DNA from: a virus
Taxonomy: Duplodnaviria > Heunggongvirae > Uroviricota > Caudoviricetes
Reading direction: 5' to 3' (one strand)
Virus record (IMG/VR): IMGVR_UViG_3300032214_000615
Length of the DNA stretch: 64,000 nt
A model generated the notes under the pieces. The model saw only the letters and a program-made list of their open reading frames with translations. It was not told the origin of the DNA and made no database searches. Positions within the stretch are counted from its first letter, which is position 1. Every line of letters begins with the position of its first letter. The translations under genes were made by a program, and so were the position numbers. Shown one piece after another: positions 18-37,151 of this stretch.

Positions 18-3000
18 ATGTATTTGTTTAAGCAATCTACTAGCACGGTGTATGTGTATCACTTGAATTCTAATAATGTATATCAACTGGCGAATACTGC
101 TGTTATTGCTAACGCAACTGGATCAGTAATCGCTACTACCACTGATGGTCGTAAGCTAATAGCTGGTGCTCCAACGGAAGTAGTTAATGGGTTATCCGAG
201 GCTGGAGCAGTTTACATATATAGTAGAGCCGTACAGAGATTTATTTCCGACGGAACACAAACTGAATATTCGCTAGTTAACGGAGCTCCTAATAATATTG
301 CTGATGTTTATTTAAATGGAGTCTTGACTAGTGCTGTAACTGTGACTGATAACAAAATTAAATTAAACACACCCGCTCCTGCTGGTATAACAGTTTCTAT
401 AGAAACGGCAACTCTACAGCTAACACAAAGATTGGTCAGCACACAGCCAAAAATTGGAGCACGTTACGGGCACAGCATTGATACGAATCGTTGGGGGTCT
501 ACTGTAGTTGTTGGTTCTCCGTTTGACTTAAATACTGACGATATAGTTTCAAATATTGAAGGCAGCGTAGCTGTTTACATCAATGGTGCTCAGCGATACG
601 GAACAATAACACTAAATGATCCTGTTGTTAATAGCGGTGATTGGTTTTTAATAGATGGATATGTAGTAGCGTTTTCAGTCAATACTGAAAACGTCAACAC
701 CATTGCCGCGACAATCAACGATCAGACGCCCACCAACATTGTTGCCACTGCTAGCGACAATCAGATTGTCTTAACAGTGTTGGACAGTACCGCGGAAACA
801 CCATATGATATTATTGATATAGTTGCCAACTTGGGTCTACAGGAGCGTTTGCGATTAGAGCCCTATAGTTTGACTCAAACTATACTAAGTGTTAATCGCT
901 CACAAACTGCTGAGTTTGGATATGCGGTATCAATGAACGAGCGTGACGGATTGATAATTTCTGCTCCTAGAACCAATAAAGTCGGAAAAACTACTTTTGA
1001 TAAAGCTAATAGCTGTGTTGATGATTACACTACTTTTGATAATGGAGTAACTACCTTCGTTGAGAGCTTTGTCGGAGTTGGTATGGTCTATGCGTATGAG
1101 TATTTGCCTGCCTCTAACGAAAGTATTACTAATCCAGGCAAATACGTATTTGGACAATATATTGTAAGTGGAGATACCAATTATGGCTCTCAATCTAGAT
1201 TTGGACACAGCGTAAAGTATCATCAAAATATGATATTAGTCGGCGCCCCAAATTGGAGTAAAACTTTCGGAGGATTCGCAACTCTATTTACAAGTGGAGT
1301 GGACAATACTGATCCTTGTATACCGCGCAAGGTCACAACGTGGCACATTGATAAGAAACCGGTCAATCAAGTAAACATCAATAAGATTAATAATATCAAC
1401 ATATTCAATCGTTTAACAGATAAAACTTTAGACGTTCTGGACTATATAGACCCAGTACAGGGAAAAATGCTGGGAGCAGTTTCTGTTAACATAGATTTCA
1501 TTAGTTCCTATGATCCAGCTGGGTATGAGATAAATGATTTACAATGGGGACGCTCTCACGTTGGCACAGTGTGGTTAGACACTAATAATTTACGTATGTT
1601 AAATTACAATCAACAAGACGTAAATTACAATGCTAAGTATTGGGGAGTTGCTTTCCCCGGAAGTTCGGCCGACGTCTATACTTGGATAGAAAGCGCGGAC
1701 ACTCCTTTAAATTATACTGGCAGCGGATTCCCGGTAGCATACGATAAGTACGTTACATCGGCCGAGCTAAATGTGGCTTCCAACACTATAGTGGTTCGCT
1801 ATTACTTCTGGGTAAAAAATTACGATGCTATCCCTGAGGGTAAAACTCTTAGTCCACTGATTATTAGTCAATACGTATTGAATCCTCAAAGTAGTGGAAT
1901 CTCATACTTGGCTCCAATTACCACGAACATTGTTGCGCTATACAATAGCAATCAATACATCAACGATAGCACTAGTACTTTACATTTAGGTTATGGAAAT
2001 TCTATATACGATGATGGAAAGCACGTTTCTTGGAAGCTAGTTCGTAGCAACAGCGATGACTTTTTGCCTGGAATCCCAGACAAGAATAATGTTAATCCAG
2101 TCGGATTGTACTTAAAGTATTTGGACAGTTTTAGTGGAGCAGATTCCGCTGGAAATTTCGTTCCTGATATAAGATTACCAGCAATGGTAAAGTCTGGAGT
2201 CAGTTTCAGTCCGCGTCAAACAATGTTTATTGATAGAAATGTAGCGGTAAAGAACTTTATAAATTATGCTAATAATATTCTCATTCAGCATCCTGTTACT
2301 GAAACACGACCAAATTTAAGCTTTATCAACACAAATGTTACCAATACATACGACACTAGAAAATACTGGAAATATGTAAATTGGTGGGCTAGTGGTTACA
2401 ATGATCAAACCAAGGCCTTGATAGAAGTAAATCAATACGTTGATCTTATTAAGATTGGCGATTCGCAGCTAATAACTGGAATCAACGGATTAGTACTTGC
2501 TCTTAAAGATGGACTGATAGTAAAAGTAAAATCTAACTCTCAGGGACTAAGCGAGCATTATGTCTATAAGAATTCTCAATGGACTCGCATCGGGGTAGAG
2601 AATGGAACCATACAATTTTTGACTACATTATGGGAGCAAATTTATGGATGGGATACCGATTTGTGGGGAACTCAATGGGACGGAAATCCATCAAAAGAAG
2701 TTTACTGGATTATACGTTGGATAAATGAGGTTCTTTACACTGATGATCTGCTAGCGGAAAGAAATAATAGCTTGATGCTGATGTTTAATTACTCACAAAG
2801 CGAGATACTAAATGAGAAAAATTACAATCAGTGGTTAATGAAGACTAGTATGATTGACGTTAATCATACTATTAGAAAGCTATCTCCGTATAAAAAGTAT
2901 CAACGCGACAACACTGAATTCTTAAGTGGGTACTTAAACGAAATTAAACCTTTCCACGTTTACATAAAAGACTTTGTGTATGCGTATGATGGTATTGACA

Positions 3001-4604
3001 CGGCTCGCACTGATGTTACCGATTTTGATTTACCGGCTCAGTACAATAATTCACAGCGTAAATTTATAACTCCACAGTTGAGGTACAGCGGTAACGTCAA
3101 CGTTGGCGAGTATATGCCAACTTCTAATATATGGAGCGACACTGATTACGTTAAATGGTTTGAAAATTATGGACTATCGCTTTCGGAGTCAGTTAAAGAG
3201 CCAATTAAAGTTGCTACACTAGCGGAAAAAGTATTAGATACTGCGACCGCCATTAGATTATCTACGGTGTATGGACTTCAAGCAGGTGATGTAATCATTA
3301 TTGATGATGAGCAGATTCAGGTTAATAACGTAGATAGAATCAGCAATCGTGTTACTGGATTAACTCGTGGGTATAACAGCACTGTTATTAGCGAACACAA
3401 GGCTAAGTCCAATGTGTTTGTTGCCCATAGGTCTTCTTTTGTATTGGATTCTGGACGTGGATACGATTCCACTGAGGAATTAATAAGCATTACTTCGGAC
3501 ACAGTGAATTATCCAAGTCCTAGACAAGAAATTGTTTTAAGTCCCGCAGTGGCTAACACTAGAATAACTTCGATTAATACGGTAAACAGTGGCGGTGGTT
3601 ATTCGGTAGCACCAGAAATTAAATTTCTGCCCAGCAATTTGTACAAAGAGTTTTCTGGTTCTAATGTAAATGCTACCACAAATACAATTACGATTAATAA
3701 TCACGGCTTTGAAACTGGCGATAGTGTAATTTACACAAACACTAGTACGATTAACTACGGCTTAAAACACAACTCTTATTATTATGTAAGAGCAATTAAC
3801 GCCAATACTATTGCTCTGTATCAAAATTACAAACACGCTGCTGATGGTGGAACACAATTTGAACAAAAGCAGGAGCTTGACGCAAGAAGAGTTAAGCTAA
3901 AGTCGTCATCGTCAACTGTGCTAACTCGTCTATCAATAATAGCAAGAGCGCAGTTTATGTACGAGAGCTATCCAATAAGAACAATCAAAACTACTATAGC
4001 ATTTGATAGAGTTTCCTATACCGCTCGTGACGATAATGGCTGGGACAATTCATACTATTACTGGGACGTACTTCCTTGGGACGGTGAAGAGGACAGTGAC
4101 ACAGCGGCCACAAGAATTAAAAAGTACTATACTCCTACTGTTAATATGCCAGGCAAAGATTTAAGACAACTAATGTCTGGCGTTATTTATCCTAATTCTA
4201 TACTAAGCGGTATCGATTTCGCTCCAGCGATTCCAGTAACTCCTGATATTGAGATTGAGAGTCCAGTGGACGAAACTGAAACTGATATTATCGTTGACGG
4301 TGGAGATTTCATTGACGGATACGGACCAGAAGAATTAGTTTCCGGATATGTCACTGATACAGTCAACATTACTGTTACTACTGACCCAACAAAAGAGCCA
4401 GGCGGTACAGGACCAACTTGGACTCATAGAATTTTTGTAAATTACGACGGAAAAGCAAGAGCTTATTCTAATAGTAATCAAAGATTAGCTTGGCAATATC
4501 TAAAGAGATGGTGGTATGGATCGGACGGGGGCAATCCCGCTAATGCTAATACTACACTAACCGCAGATGTAACTAATACTGCTGCCACATTCTTAAAAAG
4601 CTAG
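18..4604 (+). CDS. Giant virion protein (1528 aa, probably 5'-truncated by the window edge) with an N-terminal FG-GAP/integrin-alpha-like beta-propeller; candidate tail fiber or receptor-binding protein
   Basis: Uninterrupted ORF from the window edge, with no in-frame stop upstream of the first Met. Repeated FG-GAP signatures: LIAGAPTEVVNGLSEAGAVYIYS, RYGHSIDTNRWGSTVVVGSPFD, FGYAVSMNERDGLIISAPRT, SRFGHSVKYHQNMILVGAPNW. Asn/Thr/Ser-rich like fiber proteins. Confidence 0.6.
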   Translation: MYLFKQSTSTVYVYHLNSNNVYQLANTAVIANATGSVIATTTDGRKLIAGAPTEVVNGLSEAGAVYIYSRAVQRFISDGTQTEYSLVNGAPNNIADVYLNGVLTSAVTVTDNKIKLNTPAPAGITVSIETATLQLTQRLVSTQPKIGARYGHSIDTNRWGSTVVVGSPFDLNTDDIVSNIEGSVAVYINGAQRYGTITLNDPVVNSGDWFLIDGYVVAFSVNTENVNTIAATINDQTPTNIVATASDNQIVLTVLDSTAETPYDIIDIVANLGLQERLRLEPYSLTQTILSVNRSQTAEFGYAVSMNERDGLIISAPRTNKVGKTTFDKANSCVDDYTTFDNGVTTFVESFVGVGMVYAYEYLPASNESITNPGKYVFGQYIVSGDTNYGSQSRFGHSVKYHQNMILVGAPNWSKTFGGFATLFTSGVDNTDPCIPRKVTTWHIDKKPVNQVNINKINNINIFNRLTDKTLDVLDYIDPVQGKMLGAVSVNIDFISSYDPAGYEINDLQWGRSHVGTVWLDTNNLRMLNYNQQDVNYNAKYWGVAFPGSSADVYTWIESADTPLNYTGSGFPVAYDKYVTSAELNVASNTIVVRYYFWVKNYDAIPEGKTLSPLIISQYVLNPQSSGISYLAPITTNIVALYNSNQYINDSTSTLHLGYGNSIYDDGKHVSWKLVRSNSDDFLPGIPDKNNVNPVGLYLKYLDSFSGADSAGNFVPDIRLPAMVKSGVSFSPRQTMFIDRNVAVKNFINYANNILIQHPVTETRPNLSFINTNVTNTYDTRKYWKYVNWWASGYNDQTKALIEVNQYVDLIKIGDSQLITGINGLVLALKDGLIVKVKSNSQGLSEHYVYKNSQWTRIGVENGTIQFLTTLWEQIYGWDTDLWGTQWDGNPSKEVYWIIRWINEVLYTDDLLAERNNSLMLMFNYSQSEILNEKNYNQWLMKTSMIDVNHTIRKLSPYKKYQRDNTEFLSGYLNEIKPFHVYIKDFVYAYDGIDTARTDVTDFDLPAQYNNSQRKFITPQLRYSGNVNVGEYMPTSNIWSDTDYVKWFENYGLSLSESVKEPIKVATLAEKVLDTATAIRLSTVYGLQAGDVIIIDDEQIQVNNVDRISNRVTGLTRGYNSTVISEHKAKSNVFVAHRSSFVLDSGRGYDSTEELISITSDTVNYPSPRQEIVLSPAVANTRITSINTVNSGGGYSVAPEIKFLPSNLYKEFSGSNVNATTNTITINNHGFETGDSVIYTNTSTINYGLKHNSYYYVRAINANTIALYQNYKHAADGGTQFEQKQELDARRVKLKSSSSTVLTRLSIIARAQFMYESYPIRTIKTTIAFDRVSYTARDDNGWDNSYYYWDVLPWDGEEDSDTAATRIKKYYTPTVNMPGKDLRQLMSGVIYPNSILSGIDFAPAIPVTPDIEIESPVDETETDIIVDGGDFIDGYGPEELVSGYVTDTVNITVTTDPTKEPGGTGPTWTHRIFVNYDGKARAYSNSNQRLAWQYLKRWWYGSDGGNPANANTTLTADVTNTAATFLKS

Positions 4605-5437: not shown

Positions 5438-6334
5438 ATGCCATACAACATACAGCTAGTCAACACCAGTATAACGGTAAATGATGGATCATTGAACGGG
5501 TCAACTGGATTACAATTGCCAGGTAGAAATTTCGCTGGTTATGGACAGCCAATTAATCAGAGCTTGGTAGATTTACTACAGCATTTTGCTAGACTTCCAT
5601 CTACCGATCAGGGTCCTGATACAGCAGTCGTGGGGCAAATTTGGTTTGATAAGGGCGATCCAACTGCCACCCCTCCTCGTCCGGAATCATTAAAAGTAAA
5701 AACAGCCGCTTCTGCCAATTATGGTTGGAAAAAAATAATTACCGAAGGCAGCACTTTTAATACTAGCGAAATCACTGCTACTACTATAAACAGTGACGAT
5801 ATCATAACCGATACATTGACTAGCAGACTAGTAACTGTTAGTGGCACTCTTACTACTACTAAAATTACTACTGGATCCGCTTCTACTGCCGGAACATTAA
5901 CAGGAGACTGGACACTAACCGACGGATCTAGATTAAATGCTACATATGCGGACTTGGCTGAGCGATTTGAGGCAGACTGCGAATATGATCCAGGCACAGT
6001 AGTTGAGTTAGGCGGAGAAAAAGAAATAACAGCGGTAAAAGAAGACTGTAGCGAAACTGTATTTGGAGTAATAAGCACTAATGCTGCCTATCTAATGAAC
6101 AGTGGCGCTGGAAATAACGCAACACACCCTGCTATAGCGATTGCCGGAAGAGTCCCTGTAAAAGTACGCGGGCAAATTCGCAAGGGTGATCGATTGGTGA
6201 GCGCTGGTAATGGAGTTGCTAGAGCCGCTCGCAAGGGAGAAGCTACAGCATTCAACACTATAGGACGATCTTTAGAAAACAAAAACACAGATGCGTATGG
6301 TAGCGTTCTAGCGACAGTTACTGCTAAAATGTAA
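5438..6334 (+). CDS. Tail-fiber-like structural protein
   Basis: 298 aa, Thr/Ser-rich, TATAAATA box upstream. The C-terminal block ATYADLAERFEADCEYDPGTVVELGG resembles a module I associate with phage tail-fiber C-termini; the similarity is from memory only. Confidence 0.4.
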   Translation: MPYNIQLVNTSITVNDGSLNGSTGLQLPGRNFAGYGQPINQSLVDLLQHFARLPSTDQGPDTAVVGQIWFDKGDPTATPPRPESLKVKTAASANYGWKKIITEGSTFNTSEITATTINSDDIITDTLTSRLVTVSGTLTTTKITTGSASTAGTLTGDWTLTDGSRLNATYADLAERFEADCEYDPGTVVELGGEKEITAVKEDCSETVFGVISTNAAYLMNSGAGNNATHPAIAIAGRVPVKVRGQIRKGDRLVSAGNGVARAARKGEATAFNTIGRSLENKNTDAYGSVLATVTAKM

Positions 6335-6347
6335 TATGGAATAAATT

Positions 6348-8663
6348 ATGGCTTACACAGTAGGACAAACAGTACAAGCTGCTGATTATAACGGATTCAG
6401 AACGAGCGTAAACACTGCTTGGAGCGTTGGTACTGGAAACGCTGGGTACGGCCAGCCAGAGTTTACACAAGTTAATGTCGGCGACTTGATCCAAGCTAGA
6501 GCATCAACCGTTACTCCTGGAAATCCAAATAGCAATGTGCCTCCAACCTGGAGTACTACTCCGGAATGGCGATCATTGGTTAACGCAATAAATTCTATGT
6601 CCAAGCATCAAGTTGGTGGAGCCGACATAGTAACTGCCAGCAGTTTTGCTGCTAGTAATAGTTTGCCAACTTCAGCAGCATCAATCACTGGTTTGATAGC
6701 GCATTCCTCTACCGTTAGCAACGGTATTACTGCCGTAACTGGTAATCAAAGATTAAATGCCGCCGCGCAGGGCACTACGTCTACGACTGTATTAACAAAT
6801 AACGCCGGCGCTTGGTCAGACAAATTAGTGTTTACATTTGAAGTAAATTTCTCAAATGTAAATCGTCTACGCTACTACTTTAATGCTGGTGGACAGATAA
6901 GTTTAAATATGAGTCACAGCGGTTCTGGTGATGCTAACTCTTTATTCTCAAACATAGCTTCAGAAGCGGGACAAATTTATTTAAGTAGCACAAACGCATT
7001 TCCACTTACAATAGCGGGTCAAACTTACGACGGAGTTACAAAAGTTGGAGGTGTGGTCAGTAGCAGAACTACTATTAACAACTTGGGATTCTATCAATTA
7101 ACCGGTACGCCAGTTCAAATATACAAACAAACCGGTAGTAGTCCATCTACACCATATACCAGTGATAGTGCTATAACTATAACTGCTGCTCATGATGGTG
7201 CTGGAAAGTTAATCTTTGTAGTTACTTGGGACTTAATACCGAATGGAGTCTCTGTCAGTAGCGGATCAATTACTAATTTAAGTTTGCTACCGCCAAGTAC
7301 TGCGAACATTGTTGACACATGGGGCACTCCTACTGTTACAACAAACGTTGAACTAACTCAAGCACCAAACTGTATTACACCGACTGTTGGATCAGTGTCA
7401 TCGAACGCATTTAAGGCTACAGTTGCCTATAATGGAACAATCACCGTTACAAATGCTACCGATGCTAGCATAACTAGTGGTCTGCCAAGTGGAATTACGT
7501 ATACGGGTGCTGCTAATGGAAATAATTATGTTCTGACTTTAACGGGAACTCCCACTACTGGAAATCAATCATACAATATTTTGGTGACTGCTACCAATAG
7601 TGGTCTTGGATGCGTTTCTGCCACATTACCGAGTCCGGTATCTGCTGGATCAGGAACAGTAGAAGAAACACTATGCGACACTCCAGTGTCATCAGCAGCG
7701 TTTGCCGCTAACTCATTTACAGCCAACGTTGCCTATGGACCAGTTACTTGGACTGTATCTAAGGCAACCTCTGCTACACTCAGTGGATTCCCAACTGGAA
7801 TTACAGTAACTGGGCAACAAGTAGGGGCCGACTATCAATTCACAGTTAGTGGTACGCCAGGCGTATCTACTGGTGGAAGTACGTGGACCGCATTAGTAAC
7901 CGCAACTAATAATTGTGGCGGCGGTAAGACACAATCAACACTAGCTTCCACTCAAGTGGGAACAGGAACCGTAGGCGCTCTAGCAAACTGCGTGGCTCCT
8001 ACGGTGGGAACAGTAAGCGCCAATTCGTTCCAAGTTGGCGTAAGTTACACAGGCACTATTACCGTACAAAACGCCACTAGTGCTACCATAACTGGTGGTC
8101 TGCCAAGTGGAATTACTTCCAACGCAGGCGCGGCATCTGGATCAAATTACGTATTTAATTTAAGTGGTACTCCGACAAGCTCCGGAGAAGCATACGACAT
8201 TCGTGTAAATGCTACTAACTCAGGAGCTACTTGTACTACTGTAACAGTAACAAATCAACAAGCTGGTTCTGGAACGGTTATAGCTCAAGCACAATGTGCT
8301 GCCCCAGTAATTGGAGCTATAACTCCAAATCTAGCAAGCCCGCCATCATTCAAGGTTGGACAAGCATACAGCGGTACAGTTACTATCACTAACACTACGT
8401 CCACTGGTCAAGGAAATATAGGAACTGTTATAGTACCGGGAGTTACGATAACAGCGGCCAATCTTGCTGGAACCACTCTAACATATACTATATCAGGCAC
8501 CCCGACTACTACTGGGCAATATGATATATCATTTACTGCTACGAATAATTGCGGAGGAGGCTCAGCACCAACCACTACTACTAGTAGCATCGGATTAATT
8601 ACTGTATCTGCTGCCGCCGCCTGTGCGAATCCAGTAATAGCGGCTAATATAATAGAAGTGTAG
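6348..8663 (+). CDS. Fiber/adhesin built from repeated Ig-like (He_PIG / 'putative Ig') domains
   Basis: 771 aa. Several about 90 aa repeats of the form C..PTVG.VS.N.F...V.Y.GTITV.NAT.A.ITGGLPSGIT.....G..Y.L.GTPT..G.Y.I.V.ATNSG..C. Thr/Gly/Ser-rich. Confidence 0.55.
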   Translation: MAYTVGQTVQAADYNGFRTSVNTAWSVGTGNAGYGQPEFTQVNVGDLIQARASTVTPGNPNSNVPPTWSTTPEWRSLVNAINSMSKHQVGGADIVTASSFAASNSLPTSAASITGLIAHSSTVSNGITAVTGNQRLNAAAQGTTSTTVLTNNAGAWSDKLVFTFEVNFSNVNRLRYYFNAGGQISLNMSHSGSGDANSLFSNIASEAGQIYLSSTNAFPLTIAGQTYDGVTKVGGVVSSRTTINNLGFYQLTGTPVQIYKQTGSSPSTPYTSDSAITITAAHDGAGKLIFVVTWDLIPNGVSVSSGSITNLSLLPPSTANIVDTWGTPTVTTNVELTQAPNCITPTVGSVSSNAFKATVAYNGTITVTNATDASITSGLPSGITYTGAANGNNYVLTLTGTPTTGNQSYNILVTATNSGLGCVSATLPSPVSAGSGTVEETLCDTPVSSAAFAANSFTANVAYGPVTWTVSKATSATLSGFPTGITVTGQQVGADYQFTVSGTPGVSTGGSTWTALVTATNNCGGGKTQSTLASTQVGTGTVGALANCVAPTVGTVSANSFQVGVSYTGTITVQNATSATITGGLPSGITSNAGAASGSNYVFNLSGTPTSSGEAYDIRVNATNSGATCTTVTVTNQQAGSGTVIAQAQCAAPVIGAITPNLASPPSFKVGQAYSGTVTITNTTSTGQGNIGTVIVPGVTITAANLAGTTLTYTISGTPTTTGQYDISFTATNNCGGGSAPTTTTSSIGLITVSAAAACANPVIAANIIEV

Positions 8664-8681
8664 TATTATCAGGAATAATTT

Positions 8682-10004
8682 ATGCCATTAGTAGTAGGAC
8701 AATCATATTCTTCTTATATAGAAATAACTGGAGCAACAAGTGCCACTGTTACTAGTGGATCACTTCCCACAGGAATAACTGGCTCTCTCAATACAGGTAC
8801 CGGACGATATAATTTGTCTGGTACACCAACTGCGGCTGGTATTTATGATTTTACCATCACTGCGACTAATGAATGTGGCACCGGTGGAGCTACTGGGTCC
8901 GCTGCTATCCCCTTCACTTTAACTGTGGGCGATTTTTCTCCGCAAACTGCGCTAACTTTTTATCATACCAACACTCTCTCACTTATGGCGCGGGACCTTA
9001 ATAATCAACAGCCATTTTCTACCCGATATTTAGTAGCATCTACGTACAATTATAATGAGTGGCAAACGCAAGCAAATCAGCCATTTAATCCACTTGTTTC
9101 TGGAATATCACCGTCGGCTTTTGGATCAATTGGTGGTTCTGTGTCTACCACTGTTCTTTCTATAGGAGTCGGAATAGATGATTACGATAACAGTCCACAA
9201 GGCAATATCAAAGATTGGACTAATTTGGTGTGGGAAGGAAGTGATAGCTATTCATTCCCAAATCAAATAGTCGGAAACACTGCTCAGGAATACGGGGGCG
9301 GAGCAGGAGTGTGGAATATACAAGAGGGTCTATCAACATTTAACGGCAATACAACTGTAACTATAGCAAATGGATTGGCCGGCAGTGGAGGAATAGATCG
9401 TGCTACTATAGCACACTGTGCCTTTATTCCTGGTAACTGGAGAGCAACTACCGTGTACTCTCCCCCAGCAGCCACTCTTGTTAGCGGAAATGGAGGGTAT
9501 CCAGTATCAAGTGCTCTTGGATTGACCACTAGTGTTTCCGAAATAGCAGAATACACTGTTACGGTTCCAGCCTTTTCTTTTATTCTCGTGGCAGCCTCAA
9601 CCGCAATCTATTACTACACATTAAATGACGATACTAATCTCAAGTATCATCAATTTTTTGATATACCAGCTGGATGTGTGACCTCATATGAAAGAGTTTT
9701 TGATGATGGCGGATATAACTCTGCCCTATCGACGATAATATGTAATTTAACTGCTAGTCAAAAGACTGTAAAAGTTAAATTGCCATCAACTATTAGTTAT
9801 AACGACGTTGATTTTGAAGGAAACCCGACCACTGGAACCGTGAGTCAAACACTAGGAAAGCAATGCGGCATATTTGTTTTTGAACCTATGACTCAGTTTA
9901 ATACAGTAATTTCCAAACCGACTTCTGCTCCAACTTGGCCTGGAGGCGGTGGTGGAGGCGGAGGCGGAGGTGGAGGAATCACTTACCCAGTATCTAATCA
10001 GTAA
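8682..10004 (+). CDS. Fiber protein paralog with N-terminal Ig-like module and C-terminal poly-Gly tract
   Basis: N-terminal MPLVVGQSYSSYIEITGATSATVTSGSLPTGITG...LSGTPTAAGIYDFTITATNECGTGG is shared with the next gene. Ends ...WPGGGGGGGGGGGGITYPVSNQ. Confidence 0.55.
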   Translation: MPLVVGQSYSSYIEITGATSATVTSGSLPTGITGSLNTGTGRYNLSGTPTAAGIYDFTITATNECGTGGATGSAAIPFTLTVGDFSPQTALTFYHTNTLSLMARDLNNQQPFSTRYLVASTYNYNEWQTQANQPFNPLVSGISPSAFGSIGGSVSTTVLSIGVGIDDYDNSPQGNIKDWTNLVWEGSDSYSFPNQIVGNTAQEYGGGAGVWNIQEGLSTFNGNTTVTIANGLAGSGGIDRATIAHCAFIPGNWRATTVYSPPAATLVSGNGGYPVSSALGLTTSVSEIAEYTVTVPAFSFILVAASTAIYYYTLNDDTNLKYHQFFDIPAGCVTSYERVFDDGGYNSALSTIICNLTASQKTVKVKLPSTISYNDVDFEGNPTTGTVSQTLGKQCGIFVFEPMTQFNTVISKPTSAPTWPGGGGGGGGGGGGITYPVSNQ

Positions 10005-10010
10005 CACATT

Positions 10011-11669
10011 ATGCCATTAGTAGTAGGACAATCATACAATGCTTATATAGAAATAACTGGAGCTACAAGCGCTAGTATTACTAGTGGCGCATTACCGGGT
10101 GGATTAGTTGGATCGTACAACGCCGGCACTAGTAGATTTACTATAACAGGCACGCCAGAGACAGCCGCAACCTATAATTTTACTATCACCGCCATTAACG
10201 CTTGCGGATCAGGTGGATCCGATGGAAGTTTCGTCAGAGATTATTCTTTAACTGTAGCCTCCCCGCCTGCTATGTCTGCTAGTATAGGCATTCCAACTCC
10301 TCAATATGTCAACGAAGGAGATGTAGTTGTATTCACTTACACTATAACAAATCGTCAAAATCAAAACGTATATTGGAGAGTAGAGGCCACGTCCCCAACA
10401 TCATCCGCGGCGATTACCTCTGATGATTTTTCTACTCCAAGTAGCGGAGTTATTAATACCGACTCTGGCAATATTACATTAACTATTAGCAGTGATTTAA
10501 CAACAGAAAACTTTGAACGATTCCGTCTTGTTTTTTATACAAATGGGACCTACACGGATTTATTAACACTTTCTACTTTCGTGGAAATCGTTGACACATC
10601 AGTTACTCCACCGTCTACTTGTGCCACTCCAACTCTAGTATCAAACATTACTCCAAGTGCTGCCACTCAGGGAACTTATACTGGAACTATACAATTATCA
10701 AACACAAGCAGTGTTGGAGTAACTTTAAATAGTCCGCCAGATTGGTCTGTTGCGTCATACGATAAAGCCACTGGAACATTAACTATTAGTGGACCATCCA
10801 GTCCGGGCTCATATAGTGTTAGCATTAACGCAATTAATAATGAAATTCCAGCAGGCTGTAATACTACTGAAATTGTTTCAATAAACGCCGGCAGCGTTAC
10901 GATTTGTAACGAAGCAACATCGGCAACTCAAACAGTAACTGGGTCATTAACTGGCACCACAGTGTGGGGCTCAAATCCTTACACTCAAGATTCTGACTTT
11001 GCTGTAGCCGCTGTTCACGCTGGGTTGGTGGCACCAGGCGCCACCGCTACTATAACTAAAACTTTTGTTGGGTACTTACAAAATTATTCAGGCACCACAG
11101 CCAATGGAGTCACAACCACAAACTGGACTACTGGATGGTGTGGCGTTCAAATTTCTCTAGCATCTGGAGGCGGTGGAGGTTCCACCTGTTTTGCTTATGG
11201 AACAAAAATACTAATGAGTGATGGTACGTCAAAGAATATTGAAGACTTACAAGAAAACGATATTATAAAAACAGTAAGCATAGCTGATTTAGATACACAA
11301 GAGACTGCGTGGGAATACTGGAGTTCAAACTCATTCGTTACTAGCAATGCCACGGCCACAGTCAAGAGCATATATGTACACACCGCAACACACTACTATA
11401 ACATCAATAATGGATTATTGAAGGTAACAGATAGCCATCCAATATTAGTAGAAAAAAATGGAATTTATAGATTCAAGCGCGTGGACTCACTAACAACCGA
11501 AGATCGTCTATTCAACGTCAACGACGGATGGATACCAATTAATTCCATTCAAATTATTAATGAACAGTTAGCCACTATAAATATAGATGTTGAAGAGCAA
11601 GACACTTACTTTGCTAATGGAATTCTTGTACACAATAAGAACGAAGAAAATCAACAATCAAATCAATAA
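10011..11669 (+). CDS. Fiber protein paralog carrying an LCCL-like domain and a C-terminal Hint (bacterial-intein-like) domain
   Basis: N-terminal module nearly identical to that of 8682-10004. LCCL signature WGSNPYTQDSDFAVAAVHAGLVAPG. SGGGGGST then CFAYGTKILMSDGT (Hint block A), TDSHPILV (block B), terminal YFANGILVHN followed by only 10 more residues. Confidence 0.6.
   Translation: MPLVVGQSYNAYIEITGATSASITSGALPGGLVGSYNAGTSRFTITGTPETAATYNFTITAINACGSGGSDGSFVRDYSLTVASPPAMSASIGIPTPQYVNEGDVVVFTYTITNRQNQNVYWRVEATSPTSSAAITSDDFSTPSSGVINTDSGNITLTISSDLTTENFERFRLVFYTNGTYTDLLTLSTFVEIVDTSVTPPSTCATPTLVSNITPSAATQGTYTGTIQLSNTSSVGVTLNSPPDWSVASYDKATGTLTISGPSSPGSYSVSINAINNEIPAGCNTTEIVSINAGSVTICNEATSATQTVTGSLTGTTVWGSNPYTQDSDFAVAAVHAGLVAPGATATITKTFVGYLQNYSGTTANGVTTTNWTTGWCGVQISLASGGGGGSTCFAYGTKILMSDGTSKNIEDLQENDIIKTVSIADLDTQETAWEYWSSNSFVTSNATATVKSIYVHTATHYYNINNGLLKVTDSHPILVEKNGIYRFKRVDSLTTEDRLFNVNDGWIPINSIQIINEQLATINIDVEEQDTYFANGILVHNKNEENQQSNQ
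11187..11666 (+). other. Hint/BIL autoprocessing domain (Cys1 ... terminal HN) at the C-terminus of the fiber protein
   Basis: Hint blocks A, B and F/G read directly in the translation. No C-extein catalytic residue follows the HN (it is followed by K and a short tail). Confidence 0.55.
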
Positions 11670-11674
11670 CGATT

Positions 11675-13096
11675 ATGAAATACATAATATCTTTTATCAA
11701 AAATACAACTGACGAACACGTTGAACAGTATATGTTGGCGAATAATATTCAAGTTTTAGAACACTTGAAAAATTTAGATCACATTTACTTAACAGAGACT
11801 GACACAGTGCCCCCTCCAGACAACAATGTAGACTACATTGTTGAAAGTGAGCTAACAAAAATTACATTGGTATCCAATAATTGTGCTAGCATACAAACAG
11901 AAACTGATGAAAATTGGTGGAAACTGTCTACGTTGAATATTGATGAGTTTGATAGCACTGGAGTGTATCATTGTAAAAATGTAACTCCTGTTAATGTTTA
12001 TGTAATGGATAGTGGACTAAATCACTCACACAGCGAATTCTCGGGAATAAACGTGGAAAATGTTTATACTTATGATGAATCCTACAGTGATGAGAGTGGT
12101 CACGGCACCGCGGTATCGTCGCTAATAGCAGGCAATACGCTAAGCTTGGCTAATGTAAATCTTAAAGTTGTGAAAGTACTTGGTACAAAGGATACTTATC
12201 TAGTTGATTTATTGCGTGGATTAGACGCTATTATTGGATCAGCAGTCAACAGCGAATACATTTCCATAGTAAACATTAGCTGGGTCATGCCAAAGTTTAC
12301 ATTCTTTGAAAATCAACTTGAAAAGCTGTTTGATAAAAATATTTTAGTAGTCTGCGCGGCTGGAAATGCTGATATGGATATAGCGTTTGTTAGTCCCGCT
12401 TCAATGAATAACGCAATTTGCGTAGGCGCATATGATGAATATTTTAGACCCTGTAATTATTCGGACTATACTGGAGAACTATCAACAATATCTAGTTGGA
12501 GTAATTACGGATCAATAAATGTCTGGGCGCCAGGCTCAAACATAAAAGTGGCTAATATTGCTGACCAATATTCAATAGCTGGCGGAACATCTTTGGCATC
12601 TGCTATACACGCGGCTAGCGTTGCTTACGCACTTGGAAATTATTACAATATGGGTTCAGTTCCACTACGTAGCAACTTTAACTTCTATATGAGCGTGGTG
12701 TCTACCTTATCTGGCGTCAATTCCGGATTAATTGATTTTAGACACAGTTATGGACAATATAGTAATATTTCTACTGCTAGAACTAGCTTGGTCAAATCAC
12801 AAGTAAATCAATCAACTGACGTACTTATGGCACCAAATTCTTCTAATTTCTCTGTTAAAAATAATGGCGTGACTTTTGTAAAATGTATTCTCACCTCTTC
12901 TATAAAAGATGTAAGCATATCTGGATTGCCAGATGGACTATCTCTTACTGACGGTTGGATAATAGGAAAACCAACAATAGAATTTCCAGAGGACGAATCG
13001 GTAAAACAGTTAAATTTTGATTGTGTAATACAGTTCACTGTTATGAATCAAACGGAACCACAATCATTGCCAATTAAAGTTATTGTTAGAAGGTAA
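11675..13096 (+). CDS. Subtilisin-like serine protease (peptidase S8) with a C-terminal Ig-like (He_PIG) domain; probable virion-associated enzyme
   Basis: Catalytic motifs in order: VYVMDSGLNHSH (Asp), SGHGTAVSSLIAG (His), VVCAAGNAD (oxyanion Asn), GGTSLASAIHAASVAYA (Ser). C-terminal ISGLPDGLSLTDGWIIGKPT matches the Ig-like repeat of the fiber genes. Confidence 0.8.
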   Translation: MKYIISFIKNTTDEHVEQYMLANNIQVLEHLKNLDHIYLTETDTVPPPDNNVDYIVESELTKITLVSNNCASIQTETDENWWKLSTLNIDEFDSTGVYHCKNVTPVNVYVMDSGLNHSHSEFSGINVENVYTYDESYSDESGHGTAVSSLIAGNTLSLANVNLKVVKVLGTKDTYLVDLLRGLDAIIGSAVNSEYISIVNISWVMPKFTFFENQLEKLFDKNILVVCAAGNADMDIAFVSPASMNNAICVGAYDEYFRPCNYSDYTGELSTISSWSNYGSINVWAPGSNIKVANIADQYSIAGGTSLASAIHAASVAYALGNYYNMGSVPLRSNFNFYMSVVSTLSGVNSGLIDFRHSYGQYSNISTARTSLVKSQVNQSTDVLMAPNSSNFSVKNNGVTFVKCILTSSIKDVSISGLPDGLSLTDGWIIGKPTIEFPEDESVKQLNFDCVIQFTVMNQTEPQSLPIKVIVRR

Positions 13097-13462: not shown

Positions 13463-13645
13463 ATGAACGACGATACTCTTTTTGATTTCAGCAATTTACC
13501 TCCAAAAAAGAAAAAGAATGTTGTAGACGATGTACGCAACATTCTTATAGTTGAATTTCCTGGCGACAAAGCTGGAGAACAACGTGCGAAACAATTGTTT
13601 GAAGAATTGCGTGATCGTGGTTACACATTAAAGATAATGACATGA
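13463..13645 (+). CDS. Hypothetical small protein
   Basis: 60 aa ORF; its stop overlaps the start of the next gene (ATGA). Confidence 0.35.
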   Translation: MNDDTLFDFSNLPPKKKKNVVDDVRNILIVEFPGDKAGEQRAKQLFEELRDRGYTLKIMT

Positions 13646-14763
13646 ACAATTCAAGAACATTTGAAGTAACGCTAAAGACTGACGCGCCCAATGATTTCTA
13701 TTGTATCAAGGCTGCGAACAGCGTTGACTTGGATATAGAGAAGAAGTTAACTCATCACTTAAAGGTCACTGCTGACATAGATTCCGACTACAACATAGGG
13801 TTGATCATAGGCAACAGTGGTAGTGGTAAGACAACACTAGCCAAGCACATCTGGGGCGACGAGTGCTTTGACACACTGCTAGACAAAGATCGTGCGATAA
13901 TTAGTCAATTTGATGATAGTTATGGCTATGATGAACGAGTTCAATTTTTGAGCGGCGTTGGTCTAGCAAGTCCAACGTGCTGGATCGCACCAGCAAAGAC
14001 GCTATCCAACGGTCAACAAGCACGAGCCGAGATAGCACTACAGATGGCTCGCACTGACGGTAAGTTTACTGTTATAGATGAGTGGACAAGTGTAGTAGAC
14101 AGAACAGTTGCCAAGGCAATGAGTCACGCTATTCAAAAGCATGCTCGTAAAACTGGCAAAACAATTGTGTTGTTAAGTTGTCACTATGATGTAGTTGAGT
14201 GGTTGAATCCAGATTGGATCATTGACTGTAATCTACAAGAGTATACTGACCGGAGGTCACTTTGTCGAGGGTTTACCAGATCCGAGCAACTTGTTTTTGG
14301 GATTAGACAGCTTACCGACTCAAAAAGTTGGGGTGTCTTTAGCAAATATCACTATTTAACTGATACACTTCCTCCGGGAAAGACCTTAATGTTTGGTCTG
14401 TTTCACGAAGACACGCAGATAGGATTTATTGCGTACTCAAATTACGTGATGTGGAAGCAAGAGCATAAAGACAAGGGTTTGCCAATGGTCATGCATGCCA
14501 ACCGAATAGTAGTACATCCAGATTACTGCGGGTTTGGTCTTGGAGGAAAATTAACTGATATTACTGCTGACTATCTACAGAACACACTCGGATATGATGT
14601 TCAAATCAAACTAAGTAGTGTCAGTATGGCTAATCTGCTAAAGCGTAATACACGCTGGGAGTTACGTGACGTTAGCAGAAACGTCAACAACATCTGGGGT
14701 AATCATAAAGGCAGAACTGGTCGCATAGACGTTAAGACATACTCATTTAAATTTTTAGGATAA
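13642..14763 (+). CDS. Soluble ABC-type ATPase domain fused to a C-terminal GNAT acyltransferase-like domain
   Basis: Walker A GNSGSGKTTLA, Q-loop SQF, ABC signature LSNGQQARAEIAL, Walker B/D-loop FTVIDEWTSVVD, H-loop LLSCHYD. Then GNAT motif A MHANRIVVHPDYCGFGLGGKL. No transmembrane domain. Confidence 0.65.
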   Translation: MNNSRTFEVTLKTDAPNDFYCIKAANSVDLDIEKKLTHHLKVTADIDSDYNIGLIIGNSGSGKTTLAKHIWGDECFDTLLDKDRAIISQFDDSYGYDERVQFLSGVGLASPTCWIAPAKTLSNGQQARAEIALQMARTDGKFTVIDEWTSVVDRTVAKAMSHAIQKHARKTGKTIVLLSCHYDVVEWLNPDWIIDCNLQEYTDRRSLCRGFTRSEQLVFGIRQLTDSKSWGVFSKYHYLTDTLPPGKTLMFGLFHEDTQIGFIAYSNYVMWKQEHKDKGLPMVMHANRIVVHPDYCGFGLGGKLTDITADYLQNTLGYDVQIKLSSVSMANLLKRNTRWELRDVSRNVNNIWGNHKGRTGRIDVKTYSFKFLG

Positions 14764-26936: not shown

Positions 26937-29474
26937 ATGAGTTTAAATTTTGACGATCAATTATCTATAACTGAAGCAGAAATGTCCCCCAGTGCATTTA
27001 GCGGAGCATTACAGCAGGGTGAAGTTGATCGCGTGCTTGTTGGGTTTGAATTTGAATTCTGCATGCCTAAGAGCAAAATTAAAGAACTCACTGCGTCTAC
27101 AACTACTACCACTACTTCAACTGAAGAAGAAATATTTCAACAATTACGACGAACAAATTTGTTACACTATACTCCATACGGCAGTATTAATCTAGCTAAT
27201 TTTAATAAATGTTTTAAAGTAAAGCCTGGATTTAAATATCCTACTCTTGGTATGGGATTGCGTGGCTATATAGATGCCACGATTGATAAGTGTATTAAAA
27301 TATTCTATGAAATTCCGGAAGAAGAGCGAGCTAGAATTTCTAAAGTGGCTCTTAAGAAATTACGAGAACAGGGCGCAGCACAAATGCTTAATGTAGGTAC
27401 TTTTTGTGTTATTAGCGCGGCAAAATTATTAAGATATAAAACAGATCAGATAGCTTATCTAAGATATTTTTGCCAGGAAGCATCGCGAGAGCGTACTATC
27501 CCCATGCAATGGAGTAACTCTAAGTATAAAAAAATTATAGATTTAATTTATGGTCGTTTAATAACTTATAAATTTTTATTATATTTTATTACTGGAGCAT
27601 CTCAAGAAAGAATCGTACAAAATCCACAAGATTATTTAGATATAGTATCAATTGACGCTGCCAACAACATCTTATCTGTCAGTGAGCGTGCTACTGGTAG
27701 TTCATATATGGATTATGCTAAAGCTGTTTCAAAACTATGTCAGAGTTATGTTAAAAAGACGCCAATAATATTCATTCGTCGTCATGAAAGACCAAAAAAT
27801 CTAGTAGATTGGTATATTGAGCCTGATGGTAGTGTTATACCCACTGATTCTGAACAGGGAGGAGAATTAGTTAGTCCGCCGTTTAGGCCTGCTGTTGCCA
27901 TGGATATGTTAAAACAGTTTTACGCCATGTCTGTAGAGGGACAATTTAATGTAAGCAAAGCTAGAAAAACTGGACTACATATAAATGTCAGCATACCTAA
28001 GAAAATTGATTTGTTAAAGTTGGCAATATTTACAGCCGATGATCGTATTTTGACTCAATTTGATAGACAGAATTATGACTACGCTGTCAATGTAATGAAC
28101 AGTTTAAAACAATCTTTATCTAGTAATACTAAATTAAAAAACGACGCTAGAGTTGATAGTGATAAGGTATTGTCACGGATTGAATCTATTGCCAAAGGAA
28201 TAATGAAAGATCACACTGCCAGTATCAGTTCTGAAAACAAAAACTATATTAGTTTTCGCAGCGTTGGATTTGATTATTTAAGCCCCGGGCAGTTTAAACA
28301 TGTTGTAGATGCTGTTGGACGATTTGTTCGCGCTATAATTATTGCCAGCGACCCAGACGCATATCGTTCTGAGTATCTAAAGAAATTACAAGACTTGCTT
28401 GAAACTAATATACCAAAAAAAGAAAATCTGACAACTTCAGAATTAATAAATCTGTATCGTAATATAAAACAAAATGGTATACCAGCAATCAAAACAATAG
28501 CATATCTTACTAAAAATAATAAAAAAGCAGCAAATAAAATAGATTATTTTGGAAGCATGCTTCTTCATCTTTCTGGTTTAACCCAGCGATCTTATAAACC
28601 TAAAGAAATAATTAATACTCCAGTAAGAAATGCCACTGACGAAGAAAAGAACTTATTAACGACTACTATTACCGCCAGCAATAAACCGGCAAACATCAAT
28701 GCCACTGTTGATAAAATTAATGATCCAGTCGCAACTATAAAAACTGTAACGCTAACTGCTTCAAAAAACCCAGAAATATTAATCAAAATTATTAATATGG
28801 CTGATTCAGTAGTTAAATTACAACAAACAATGACAATGACTTACTACACTGGTGTAGAGTATCTAGGATATGGTGGTTGGGGATTAGTACAACCAACTAG
28901 AATACCCATAACAGATGATCCAGCAACTACCGATATATTAAAATACTTGAAGAGACAAATAGAAAAATCAAAAGAAACGACAAAAAAACTTAATTTACCA
29001 GAAATGATTCAAGAAGAATTAGATGTAAATAAGATTTATTACTTTGCGTATGGTATGTTGACCGACGAGAGCAAAATGAAACACTTGAACGCCAAGAAAA
29101 TAGGCAGAGCAGTACTATCTGATTTTAAATTGGAATTATTACAGCATGCTAATATCGTCAAAGAATCTGGATCAAAAGTTGTGGGTGTACTTTGGGAAAT
29201 AGATAAAGACGCACAAGATGTCTTGGATCAGATTGAGGGTTATCCAGTATATTACAATAGAATAGTAGCATCAGTAAAAACAGATACTGATGTGGTAGAT
29301 GCCGAAGTTTATATTATGACCGATCAATCTCGCAAACATTCATATGAACACGGATATCCTACTCAGAGATACGTAGATGACATAGTTCGTGGATATCGTG
29401 CCGCACGAATTAATATAAATCAGCTAATCACTGCTCTAAATGAATTAAACAGTAGACTTGACGATGAAAAGTAA
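26937..29474 (+). CDS. Amidoligase (glutamine-synthetase-like fold, Amidoligase_2-type) fused to a C-terminal gamma-glutamyl cyclotransferase (GGCT/AIG2-like) domain
   Basis: N-terminal VGFEFEFCMP (ExE ligand motif), GGELVSPP, TGLHINVS. C-terminal YYFAYGMLTDES...KVVGVLWEIDKDAQDVLDQIEGYPVYYNR (GGCT pattern YGSL...G.LY.I....LD..EGY...Y.R). Confidence 0.55.
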   Translation: MSLNFDDQLSITEAEMSPSAFSGALQQGEVDRVLVGFEFEFCMPKSKIKELTASTTTTTTSTEEEIFQQLRRTNLLHYTPYGSINLANFNKCFKVKPGFKYPTLGMGLRGYIDATIDKCIKIFYEIPEEERARISKVALKKLREQGAAQMLNVGTFCVISAAKLLRYKTDQIAYLRYFCQEASRERTIPMQWSNSKYKKIIDLIYGRLITYKFLLYFITGASQERIVQNPQDYLDIVSIDAANNILSVSERATGSSYMDYAKAVSKLCQSYVKKTPIIFIRRHERPKNLVDWYIEPDGSVIPTDSEQGGELVSPPFRPAVAMDMLKQFYAMSVEGQFNVSKARKTGLHINVSIPKKIDLLKLAIFTADDRILTQFDRQNYDYAVNVMNSLKQSLSSNTKLKNDARVDSDKVLSRIESIAKGIMKDHTASISSENKNYISFRSVGFDYLSPGQFKHVVDAVGRFVRAIIIASDPDAYRSEYLKKLQDLLETNIPKKENLTTSELINLYRNIKQNGIPAIKTIAYLTKNNKKAANKIDYFGSMLLHLSGLTQRSYKPKEIINTPVRNATDEEKNLLTTTITASNKPANINATVDKINDPVATIKTVTLTASKNPEILIKIINMADSVVKLQQTMTMTYYTGVEYLGYGGWGLVQPTRIPITDDPATTDILKYLKRQIEKSKETTKKLNLPEMIQEELDVNKIYYFAYGMLTDESKMKHLNAKKIGRAVLSDFKLELLQHANIVKESGSKVVGVLWEIDKDAQDVLDQIEGYPVYYNRIVASVKTDTDVVDAEVYIMTDQSRKHSYEHGYPTQRYVDDIVRGYRAARININQLITALNELNSRLDDEK

Positions 29475-32554: not shown

Positions 32555-32814
32555 GTGATTCAATGTCTGCTCATCGCGACGATCTTCGTGAGTGGAATGA
32601 ATTTTGTGAAAAAACTAAAATTCCACTTAGTTGGAGAGTCTATAGTCCGGACTCAATGTGGGCAAGAAGATTTCATAATGAACGTGGGTTAGTGGGACGA
32701 GAATTAATGTTGGCTGTAAAGCAAGAACTAGAAACTATAGCTCTTAAACAGAAACACGCCACTCAGCAACAAGAGCTTAAGCAGTTAATTGAATTGGAAA
32801 AGAAGTATCAATGA
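32551..32814 (+). CDS. Hypothetical small protein
   Basis: 87 aa, translationally coupled on both sides (ATGA overlaps). Confidence 0.4.
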   Translation: MSDSMSAHRDDLREWNEFCEKTKIPLSWRVYSPDSMWARRFHNERGLVGRELMLAVKQELETIALKQKHATQQQELKQLIELEKKYQ

Positions 32815-35291: not shown

Positions 35292-35332
35292 TTTTAATTC
35301 TTATTTAGTAAAGCTCCATAAATATATTTATC

Positions 35333-36061: not shown

Positions 36062-36090
36062 ATAATCTATGGAGATAGAAGTATCAGCAT

Positions 36091-37050: not shown

Positions 37051-37151
37051 GTAAAATTGAATGCTTGGGTGAAGTAGATGACTATGTGTATGATATAAGC
37101 ATAGAGAATCAAGACCCATTCTTTTTTGCCAATGATATTTTGGTTCATAAT
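37026..37151 (+). mobile_element. Split intein, C-terminal half (IntC)
   Basis: Ends HN, then the +1 Thr of the extein. Confidence 0.75.

Follow-up and report, generated by a model that had tools for sequence, protein, structure and literature searches.

Architecture of the fibre-like protein

The viral record IMGVR_UViG_3300032214_000615 (Caudoviricetes) was analysed over a stretch of 64,000 nt, referred to here as the window, which looks like part of a jumbo phage. The study concerned the open reading frame (ORF) at 10011..11669 on the forward strand, which was taken from the ORF list and encodes a modular adhesin- or fibre-like protein of 552 aa. The protein consists, in order, of immunoglobulin (Ig)-like modules, an LCCL domain, the linker ASGGGGGST, a 150-aa Hint domain and the tail KNEENQQSNQ. 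With about even confidence, the last 160 residues are read here as an active Hint domain of the bacterial intein-like (BIL) type. It would excise itself post-translationally, Lys543 being the probable acceptor of the acyl group.

All features of the gene lie on the forward strand. The N-terminal Ig-like module (aa 1–85; 10011..10265) was delimited by BLASTP and is common to the paralogue encoded upstream. The LCCL cassette covers 10880..11179 according to Pfam and blastn, with the Pfam LCCL match at aa 316–373 (nt 10956–11129) and the LCCL signature YTQDSDFAVAAVHAG beginning at aa 324 (nt 10980). A Gly5 tract (aa 386–390; 11166..11180), read directly from the sequence, lies inside the linker, and the Hint domain follows at aa 393–542 (11187..11636), as determined by profiles, an AlphaFold2 (AF2) model and Foldseek. 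The domain starts with CFAYGTKILMSDG, which opens at Cys393 (nt 11187–11189), carries the block-B motif TDSH (T473-D-S-H476; nt 11427–11438) and finishes with ILVHN, in which His541-Asn542 occupy nt 11631–11636 (Asn542 codon, 11634–11636). Exactly 10 residues, the C-terminal tail (11637..11666; sequence read), come after it, and the single lysine among them is Lys543, at the +1 position (nt 11637–11639). An initial annotation of the window, made from the letters alone, had described an LCCL signature, a Gly tract, a complete C-terminal Hint domain and an ILVHN end followed by 10 residues, and each of these elements was found where it had been placed.

Identity of the terminal Hint domain

The LCCL domain could be confirmed with Pfam model PF03815 (E 7.5e-9; 36.1 bits against a cutoff of 22.6). 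For the Hint domain, five Hint-type Pfam families matched the 552-aa protein with E-values of 2.5e-4 to 4e-3, all under their gathering scores. The models below their cutoffs include Hint_2 (21.9 bits vs 28.4), Hom_end_hint, Intein_splicing, PT-HINT (17.8 vs 27.7 bits; E 0.004) and Vint (E 0.13), and the Pfam model Hint (PF01079) gave no match to the protein. Among NCBIfam models, intein_Cterm (TIGR01443) scored 16.8 bits, above its cutoff of 15.6, and intein_Nterm (TIGR01445) scored 22.7 bits, below its cutoff of 24.5. The Hint part was also matched by phrog_38766, a 'virion structural protein' family, at 9e-13. HMM searches, which the initial annotation had proposed as a check, were clearly positive for LCCL; for Hint, the Pfam models stayed below their cutoffs and TIGR01443 alone of the models named above exceeded its own.

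More sensitive comparisons were made with a family profile (A1) consisting of the window Hint and 45 relatives. Against solved structures, the best match of this profile was BIL2 of the Tetrahymena BUBL protein (2.7e-20), followed by the A-type BIL structure 2LWY (5e-17), with inteins behind. The AF2 model based on the A1 alignment adopted the Hint beta-fold with a mean pLDDT of 92.4 and a pTM of 0.86. A Foldseek search with this model retrieved 50 Hint-fold structures from the PDB at E<=1e-3, comprising inteins, BIL, Hedgehog and related domains, all with a probability of 1.00. The top two were BIL2 (6TMM/6Y75) and 2LWY; genuine inteins came next and Hedgehog ranked 35th to 39th. The domain is 150 residues long with no endonuclease insert, and its Cys1 nucleophile and block-B T-x-x-H fall in columns that are invariant or near-invariant in A1. 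The LCCL and Hint matches are far above chance, and the window Hint is a complete, endonuclease-free BIL-type domain. The BIL-type architecture suggested in the initial annotation was thereby upheld, the closest relatives being BIL2 and the A-type BIL, ahead of inteins and Hedgehog.

Size, conservation and carriers of the family

A HMMER search with aa 381–552 returned 3003 cluster representatives at E<=1e-3, of which 648 were retained at E<=1e-10. The residue counts that follow in this section refer to the best 150 of the 3003 matches, in which 172 complete Hint copies could be located. The terminal Asn was present in all 172 copies, Cys1 in 170, the penultimate His in 167, the block-B His in 158 and the block-B Thr in 151. 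A Cys, Ser or Thr at +1 was found in 14 of the 172, and Gly, the commonest residue at -1, in 68. This near-invariance of the catalytic residues is maintained even though pairwise identity between family members is only 30–45%. In approximately two-thirds of the best 150 proteins the Hint domain stands at the extreme C-terminus, with 1–24 aa after His-Asn. Among 102 such C-terminal members, 43 have GGG at most 12 aa before Cys1, and many members carry long Gly or Pro/Thr linkers ahead of it.

The domain is under purifying selection. Its ratio of non-synonymous to synonymous substitution rates (dN/dS) was 0.10 against a relative with 95% nucleotide identity (10 synonymous and 4 non-synonymous changes), and that of the whole 552-aa protein was 0.11 against P0001, a 97%-identical protein whose gene lies on a separate contig and is followed there by the same genes.

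Annotation of the family is scant: almost every member is a metagenomic 'hypothetical protein', and many have no recorded Pfam match. The Pfam model recorded most often is PT-HINT; the few full scores available lay near or below its cutoff of 27.7 bits, with the exception of one locus (L058) at 84.6 bits. With just two narrow peptide patterns derived from a 10-sequence alignment, 66 loci could be located in viral contigs of IMG/VR (5–320 kb), and a similar single narrow pattern recovered one locus in 185,579 reference genomes, a comparison that is only indicative because the patterns are not identical and that gives no measure of absence from cellular genomes.

Cultured carriers are found among related jumbo phages, namely Yoloswag (gp103), Alexandra and the SNUABM series of Erwinia, two phages of Dickeya, Yersinia phage fHe-Yen9-02 (gp333) and phage NCTB (gp132, gp135 and gp136). 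In the three that were examined (Yoloswag, fHe-Yen9-02 and NCTB), the Hint-ending protein sits among annotated tail-fibre genes. The depositors of the cultured phages labelled it 'intein domain protein'. Annotators have noticed Hint domains in phage tail-region proteins before. Around three metagenomic members, the genes listed with Pfam hits comprise, among others, Peptidase_S74 fibres, Phage_fiber_rpt, LamG, LRR_5 and DUF5977, and the N-terminal bodies of members contain Phage_Tail_Tip, BACON, Calx-beta and PASTA modules. An N-terminal module of about 50 aa is shared by proteins with and without Hint that differ in their C-termini, a distribution that modular fibre proteins would be expected to show. 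When Hint-less alleles of Hint-bearing proteins were sought, no precise empty site was found by which intein-like mobility could be judged.

Two unusual arrangements were observed among the members. In four proteins (P0010, P0014, P0020 and P0051), up to nine Hint domains stand in tandem, separated by linkers of 3–5 residues, e.g., HN-KGG-CF, and some of the arrayed copies, as in P0010, are without the block-B Thr/His. In phage NCTB, a free-standing Hint gene of 153 aa (BN7874_135; L001 744..1205) directly follows the Hint-ending gene; its match spans profile positions 25–163 only, leaving Cys1 unaligned, and it ends in HN-KVD.

A conserved lysine in the C-terminal tail

Lysine was present in 100 of the 102 C-terminal tails, and exactly one lysine in 98. 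The expectation from tail composition was 23%, and the highest count reached in 20000 simulations was 40. In 22 tails the lysine directly follows the Hint (+1), and in 52 it occupies one of the positions +4 to +6. Among 70 internal Hint copies, 42 had a +1 lysine. An independent set of 105 proteins gave a comparable picture, with lysine in 79 of 91 tails, mostly at +1 or +2, and many proteins ending in HNK* or HNIK*; of its 12 exceptions without lysine, six lack a tail altogether and two carry a +1 Cys. All 60 of the IMG/VR homologues and all five Hint copies of the cultured phages NCTB, Yoloswag and fHe-Yen9-02 carry a tail lysine. It is also kept in P0001, whose tail is otherwise different (KNENQQSTL).

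By these counts, the lysine of the C-terminal flank is as conserved across the family as the catalytic residues themselves. In a count of 109 tails, lysine occurred in 106 and arginine in 13; as arginine does not replace lysine, the selected property is the amine and not the charge. The presence of one single lysine suggests that the Hint domain cuts itself out via lysine instead of the usual Cys, Ser or Thr.

Relation to described Hint systems

BIL domains have been known since 2003. The window Hint falls outside the definitions of the canonical intein, the Hedgehog Hog domain, the B-type BIL and PT-HINT, and its features agree best with two kinds of BIL. The A-type BIL is defined by Cys1, a C-terminal His-Asn and the lack of a +1 nucleophile, and is found in the variable parts of surface or secreted proteins that are not conserved (PMC4031507, PMC7765530). 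Every testable feature of the A-type could be found in the window protein, namely Cys1, His-Asn, no +1 Cys/Ser/Thr, a variable, non-conserved host protein and profile similarity. BIL4 of Clostridium thermocellum (2LWY), the second-best match (fold E-value 2e-8), likewise has mini-intein size and no endonuclease. The A-type BILs described so far differ in being bacterial and usually internal, with ligation through an alpha-amine proposed for them, and neither a conserved single lysine in a short tail nor an association with phage fibres is found in their descriptions (PMC4031507, PMC7765530).

BUBL BIL2 (6TMM/6Y75) was the best match by phmmer (5e-5) and Foldseek (2e-9; TM about 0.65–0.75) as well as by profile. 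It has in common with the window Hint Cys1, the block-B His, the terminal His-Asn and no requirement for a +1 Cys, Ser or Thr, and its Cys1 is preceded by Gly-Gly. The surroundings are different: BIL2 is a ciliate domain flanked by ubiquitin-like domains, and its lysine comes from a folded C-extein, whereas the window Hint has LCCL and ASGGGGGST as its N-flank, Thr at -1, a 10-residue tail as its C-flank and no ubiquitin-like match, and shares about 23% identity with BIL2. Judged by this comparison, the window Hint would work most like BUBL BIL2, without the ubiquitin-like flanks.

Class 1 mini-inteins share the fold, blocks A, B and G, and the expected N-S acyl shift and Asn cyclisation. They lie inside conserved sites of essential proteins and require a +1 Cys, Ser or Thr, in contrast to the fibre Hint with its terminal position behind a Gly linker and its +1 Lys. 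The window itself provides such a contrast in the split intein of its family-B DNA polymerase (PolB; 35333..36061 and 37026..38015), which interrupts the motif YGD|TDS and has Ser1 and a +1 Thr. The Hog domain of Hedgehog (1AT0; fold E-value 1.2e-4) is likewise C-terminal. It activates a Gly-Cys-Phe junction by forming a thioester, and the N-terminal body is released with a modified C-terminus. His-Asn is lacking in Hog, the Hint is followed there by a region that recognises sterol, and the transfer is to cholesterol; in the window protein His-Asn is present and only 10 residues follow the Hint. PT-HINT precedes and releases a C-terminal toxin domain, unlike the window Hint with its short Lys tail only, and B-type BILs (Hint_2) show no block G similarity, unlike the window Hint with its block G match by TIGR01443.

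A purely functional analogy can be drawn with Peptidase_S74 and Peptidase_G2, C-terminal fibre modules that cleave themselves off after assembly and that are encoded in genes near members of the family and by the window ORF at 5438..6334. Their fold and chemistry are unrelated, consisting of a Ser-Lys dyad protease acting after trimerisation, and a chaperone role for the Hint domain would be pure conjecture.

Proposed self-processing and alternative explanations

In the superfamily, Cys1 and block B convert the N-junction into a thioester, and His-Asn cleaves the C-junction by Asn cyclisation (PMC4031507). For BIL2, the providers of the structure describe the joining of the Gly C-terminus of the N-flank to the epsilon-amine of a lysine in the C-flank or in other proteins (PMC8616854). 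The window Hint is probably an active autoprocessing domain of the BIL type; activity in general is supported by catalytic residues that are near-invariant at 30–45% identity, by the local dN/dS of 0.10 and by the persistence of a terminal domain that a single stop codon could remove. That lysine is the nucleophile is put forward more tentatively, at somewhat less than an even chance. We infer that the reactions take place at all, as well as the part of lysine in them and their biological purpose.

In the proposed sequence of events, Cys393, aided by Thr473 and His476 of block B, would turn the Thr392-Cys393 peptide bond into a thioester. The acyl group, comprising the whole body of Ig-like modules, LCCL and Gly linker, would then move to the epsilon-amine of Lys543, which would stand in for the +1 Cys, Ser or Thr of a normal intein. 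Cyclisation of Asn542, aided by His541, would free the 150-aa Hint. The mature protein would end in ...SGGGGGST with a short isopeptide-linked peptide, or in a free carboxylate if hydrolysis prevails. The Hint domain would accordingly be a removable C-terminal pro-domain of phage fibre and adhesin proteins, swapped onto varied bodies at flexible Gly- or Pro-rich linkers. As a broader proposal, rated clearly below an even chance, the family may represent a large, almost unannotated and mainly phage-borne class of 'lysine inteins' in which one lysine within a tail of 1–24 residues replaces the +1 Cys/Ser/Thr, the Hint is excised and the C-terminus is left capped by an isopeptide. A bolder variant is that the stored thioester could tether the fibre covalently to the virion or to a host amine.

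The initial annotation had argued that the absence of a +1 nucleophile pointed to cleavage or transfer rather than splicing. This argument was not supported: the +1 Lys is the most conserved feature of the flank and His-Asn is essentially invariant, and both junctions are therefore probably reactive. Plain N-cleavage is no more likely than a splicing-like excision mediated by lysine.

Simple removal of a pro-domain is the alternative that survives best, although it was considered rather unlikely. Here the Thr392-Cys393 thioester would be hydrolysed, cleavage would be N-terminal only, the product would end in ...SGGGGGST-COOH, and the Hint with its tail would be discarded. The lysine and His-Asn would then not take part in ligation and might contribute to C-cleavage or to the solubility or folding of the pro-domain. 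Such an outcome agrees with the dominance of cleavage products in characterised A-type BILs (PMC4031507), with the intact Cys1 and TxxH, with the self-cleaving C-terminal chaperones (Peptidase_S74/G2) common in the same fibre clusters, and with the Hint-less upstream paralogue, which finishes with a Gly tract and eight residues. It leaves unexplained, however, the essentially invariant His-Asn, which Hedgehog-type domains limited to the N-reaction have lost, and the single lysine, never arginine, that is kept even in tails of 1–2 residues.

Transfer to another molecule in the manner of Hedgehog or of a harpoon, the second option of the initial annotation, was judged improbable. The thioester would be resolved from outside, for example by a lysine in another virion protein or by an amine or hydroxyl on the host surface, and the Gly-rich C-terminus would become covalently tethered. 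Attachment of the N-flank to other proteins has been reported for BIL2 as well (PMC8616854), many members have long flexible Gly/Pro linkers ahead of Cys1, and the carrier proteins are adhesin-like surface proteins. Yet an acceptor-like lysine is conserved in cis a few residues from the active site, where it would out-compete outside nucleophiles, and no adduct-recognition region is present, with just 1–24 residues after the Hint across the family and 10 in the window. The invariant His-Asn points to release of the C-flank and argues against a Hedgehog-type reaction limited to the N-junction. No conserved partner gene was found across lineages, the sole recurrent neighbour (12/40 loci) being similar to a 2-oxoglutarate (2OG)-Fe(II) oxygenase. 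Of the readings offered in the initial annotation, Hedgehog-like transfer received the least support.

A non-processing structural or binding knob, or a decaying remnant of a selfish intein without activity, is equally improbable: the Pfam Hint models all stay below threshold, some tandem copies in relatives lack TxxH (P0010) and non-catalytic domains derived from Hint are known, among them the relatives AXH and Vint that match the window protein, but all catalytic residues are present here and near-invariant in the family, dN/dS is 0.10, and a useless terminal domain that one stop codon could delete would hardly persist in thousands of clusters.

Several points weigh against self-removal through Lys543. 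No biochemical or proteomic data on any member of the family were found in the literature. A-type BILs mostly cleave and can ligate via the alpha-amine freed by Asn cyclisation (PMC4031507), so that the lysine may serve another purpose. The residue at -1 of the window Hint is Thr and not Gly. The position of the tail lysine ranges from +1 to +16, mostly +1 to +6, which fits a flexible nucleophile without proving it, and the tail region of the AF2 model has a pLDDT of only 46–70, at which its geometry cannot be assessed. The N-extein is poor in lysine, with 2 Lys in 392 aa. Such scarcity might have pointed to a reactive thioester but is uninformative, because the Hint-less paralogues are just as poor in lysine. 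Finally, an isopeptide-capped C-terminus has no obvious benefit.

The account is weakest with regard to purpose. The domain may have a role comparable to that of the self-cleaving intramolecular chaperone domains of neighbouring fibre genes. Alternatively, it may be a selfish element that excises itself, which the tandem arrays would fit.

If lysine-mediated excision is correct, lysine would be a fourth type of nucleophile in Hint and intein chemistry beyond a single ciliate locus, and amide-branch protein splicing, so far reported for one ciliate ubiquitin-like locus only, would have a second setting. Host-recognition proteins of phages would also share a maturation step that is common but has been overlooked, in thousands of clusters mostly missed by the Pfam models. 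For annotation, this would mean a mature fibre protein that falls short of the gene's prediction by about 17 kDa. For protein engineering, the family would offer small (150 aa) self-removing tags independent of Cys, Ser or Thr that leave a defined isopeptide or a Gly-terminated end. Even if only plain autocleavage takes place, the results establish BIL-type domains as widespread in phages and not confined to bacteria. The searchable literature yielded nothing on Hint domains of phage fibres, nothing on Hint domains that form isopeptides and no virion proteomics for the cultured homologues, and no description of the family size, the fixed C-terminal architecture or the single-lysine rule that links the family to the isopeptide-forming ciliate BIL was found there.

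The LCCL cassette and module exchange

A blastn comparison revealed that a 341-kb contig of a T4-like jumbo phage (L004) shares exactly 300 nt with the window (10880–11179) at 91.7% nucleotide identity, and these 300 nt are the only stretch in common with this otherwise unrelated contig. The match ends in the Gly tract. LCCL is thus a cassette that was exchanged recently, with the Gly-coding tract as the junction. After the Gly run, L004 encodes a LamG domain in place of Hint, which marks Hint as an optional terminal module and not as the partner of LCCL. The same LCCL-LamG protein or cassette type was also present in two IMG/VR contigs. Compared with the closely related metagenomic contig L005, the LCCL cassette showed 16 synonymous changes and a dN of 0.

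Pfam LCCL is on record for the homologues P0001–P0005 and P0008, and LCCL was also found in other metagenomic proteins that are not phage-like. The initial annotation had described LCCL as a domain mostly known from eukaryotic extracellular proteins; its occurrence in other metagenomic proteins and its movement as a 300-nt cassette between jumbo phages make it less exotic here than that description implied. The Gly/Pro linkers ahead of Hint mark points of module exchange in receptor-binding proteins.

The initial annotation had also placed the protein in a fibre, at its tip. We infer the fibre assignment from the gene context; no fibre-shaft match could be obtained for the 552-aa protein, and a PDB sequence search with the N-extein gave nothing useful. 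The tip position was likewise derived from context, and because LamG follows the Gly linker in a relative, LCCL is not necessarily distal.

Genomic setting

The genes upstream of the Hint-bearing ORF are on the same strand and include structural genes. The first, at 18..4604, encodes a virion structural protein of 1528 aa with an FG-GAP repeat (phrog_10938, 1.3e-47; Pfam FG-GAP_2), and tblastn against phages related it to proteins of PA5oct and other jumbo phages. It is followed at 5438..6334 by a gene for a 298-aa protein with PHROG matches and a weak match to Peptidase_G2, an autoproteolytic intramolecular chaperone (Pfam, 26.8 bits vs a cutoff of 25), which as context points to a cluster of fibre/spike genes, and at 6348..8663 by a gene for a 771-aa protein in which about five Ig-like repeats were recognised by repeat similarity. 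PDB sequence searches with the 5438..6334 product and with the N-terminus of the 6348..8663 product returned nothing useful.

The upstream paralogue (8682..10004, forward strand; ORF list and BLASTP) is a 440-aa protein ending in W-P-G12-ITYPVSNQ, with a Gly run of exactly 12 (nt 9942–9977), a tail without lysine and no Hint match. BLASTP aligned its first 85 aa or so with the 552-aa protein, at approximately 68% identity over the first 60 aa and 40% over an alignment of 167 aa. The initial annotation was right about a Gly12 run without Hint in this protein, but the paralogy is confined to the first 85 or so residues.

The ORFs starting at 6348, 8682 and 10011 are all in the same frame and encode Ser/Thr/Gly-rich proteins with Ig-like repeats. 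ORF 6348..8663 ends inside the first strand of an Ig-like repeat (CANPVIAANIIEV*), and the two following ORFs start with the remainder of that repeat (MPLVVGQSY...), with 26 nt identical at both starts. A joining of the three ORFs by read-through or recoding was ruled out by a TAG plus an in-frame TAA at one junction and a TAA at the other. This arrangement suggests either that alternative C-terminal cassettes arose by duplication or that separate proteins undergo strand complementation.

Five nucleotides downstream of the Hint-bearing gene, a gene for a subtilisin-like S8 protease is located on the forward strand (11675..13096; Pfam Peptidase_S8, 6e-22). As a candidate partner in the mechanism it was rejected: it is syntenic only in L005, a single close relative, no S8 gene is among the listed neighbours of the three metagenomic members, and none was identified among the eight largest neighbour families of 40 viral loci. 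The protease is probably not part of the mechanism. Replication genes are located further along the window.

A nucleotide search with window positions 8000–14000 against 50,697 phage genomes gave no match, indicating that there is no close cultured relative. The metagenomic contig L005 showed 94.7% identity over 3.6 kb with the same gene order.

Across 40 non-redundant viral loci no conserved partner or acceptor gene was found, the neighbours being lineage-restricted. The most frequent neighbour, at 12 of the 40, looks by eye like a 2OG-Fe(II) oxygenase of the prolyl-4-hydroxylase type (L011, L012, L014, L021, L029, L036, L038, L040, L049, L057, L058 and L062). This ORF lies 1–3 genes downstream of the Hint gene and encodes about 140–205 aa (399 aa in three loci; one ORF of 93 aa clusters with them too), and many Hint proteins at these loci have Pro-rich linkers with PPPP immediately preceding Cys1. 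SET-domain genes, of a lysine methyltransferase family, were observed near two unrelated metagenomic Hint-ending genes (L006 2619..2957 and L007 8837..9178). The one in L007 is immediately downstream of the Hint gene, which is perhaps a coincidence but notable given the conserved tail lysine.

The family-B DNA polymerase of the window (32811..38015) was observed to be a 'fractured gene', with a split intein in YGDTDS plus a second split without an intein. Its first piece (32811..34427) contains the exonuclease domain and the start of the polymerase domain, its second (35333..36061) a polymerase segment up to ...IVYGD followed by the intein N-half SVTADTII, and its third (37026..38015) the intein C-half ending in ...ANDILVHN followed by TDSCYFS. 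Two endonuclease-like genes lie between the pieces, one on the complementary strand (34422..35291; Vsr/DUF559/MTES_1575-like) and one at 36091..37050 (MTES_1575-like).

Two further genes of the window were also recorded. A fused ABC-type ATPase and GNAT acetyltransferase (13642..14763; phrog_11143, 1.5e-73) unexpectedly adjoins the structural genes, and its product is 47–52% identical to proteins of small temperate Pasteurella and Leptospira phages, where the genes are near ParB-like and DNA-modification genes. At 26937..29474, an 845-aa protein is encoded that combines an unannotated N-terminal part of 700 aa with a C-terminal gamma-glutamyl cyclotransferase domain (GGACT/AIG2).

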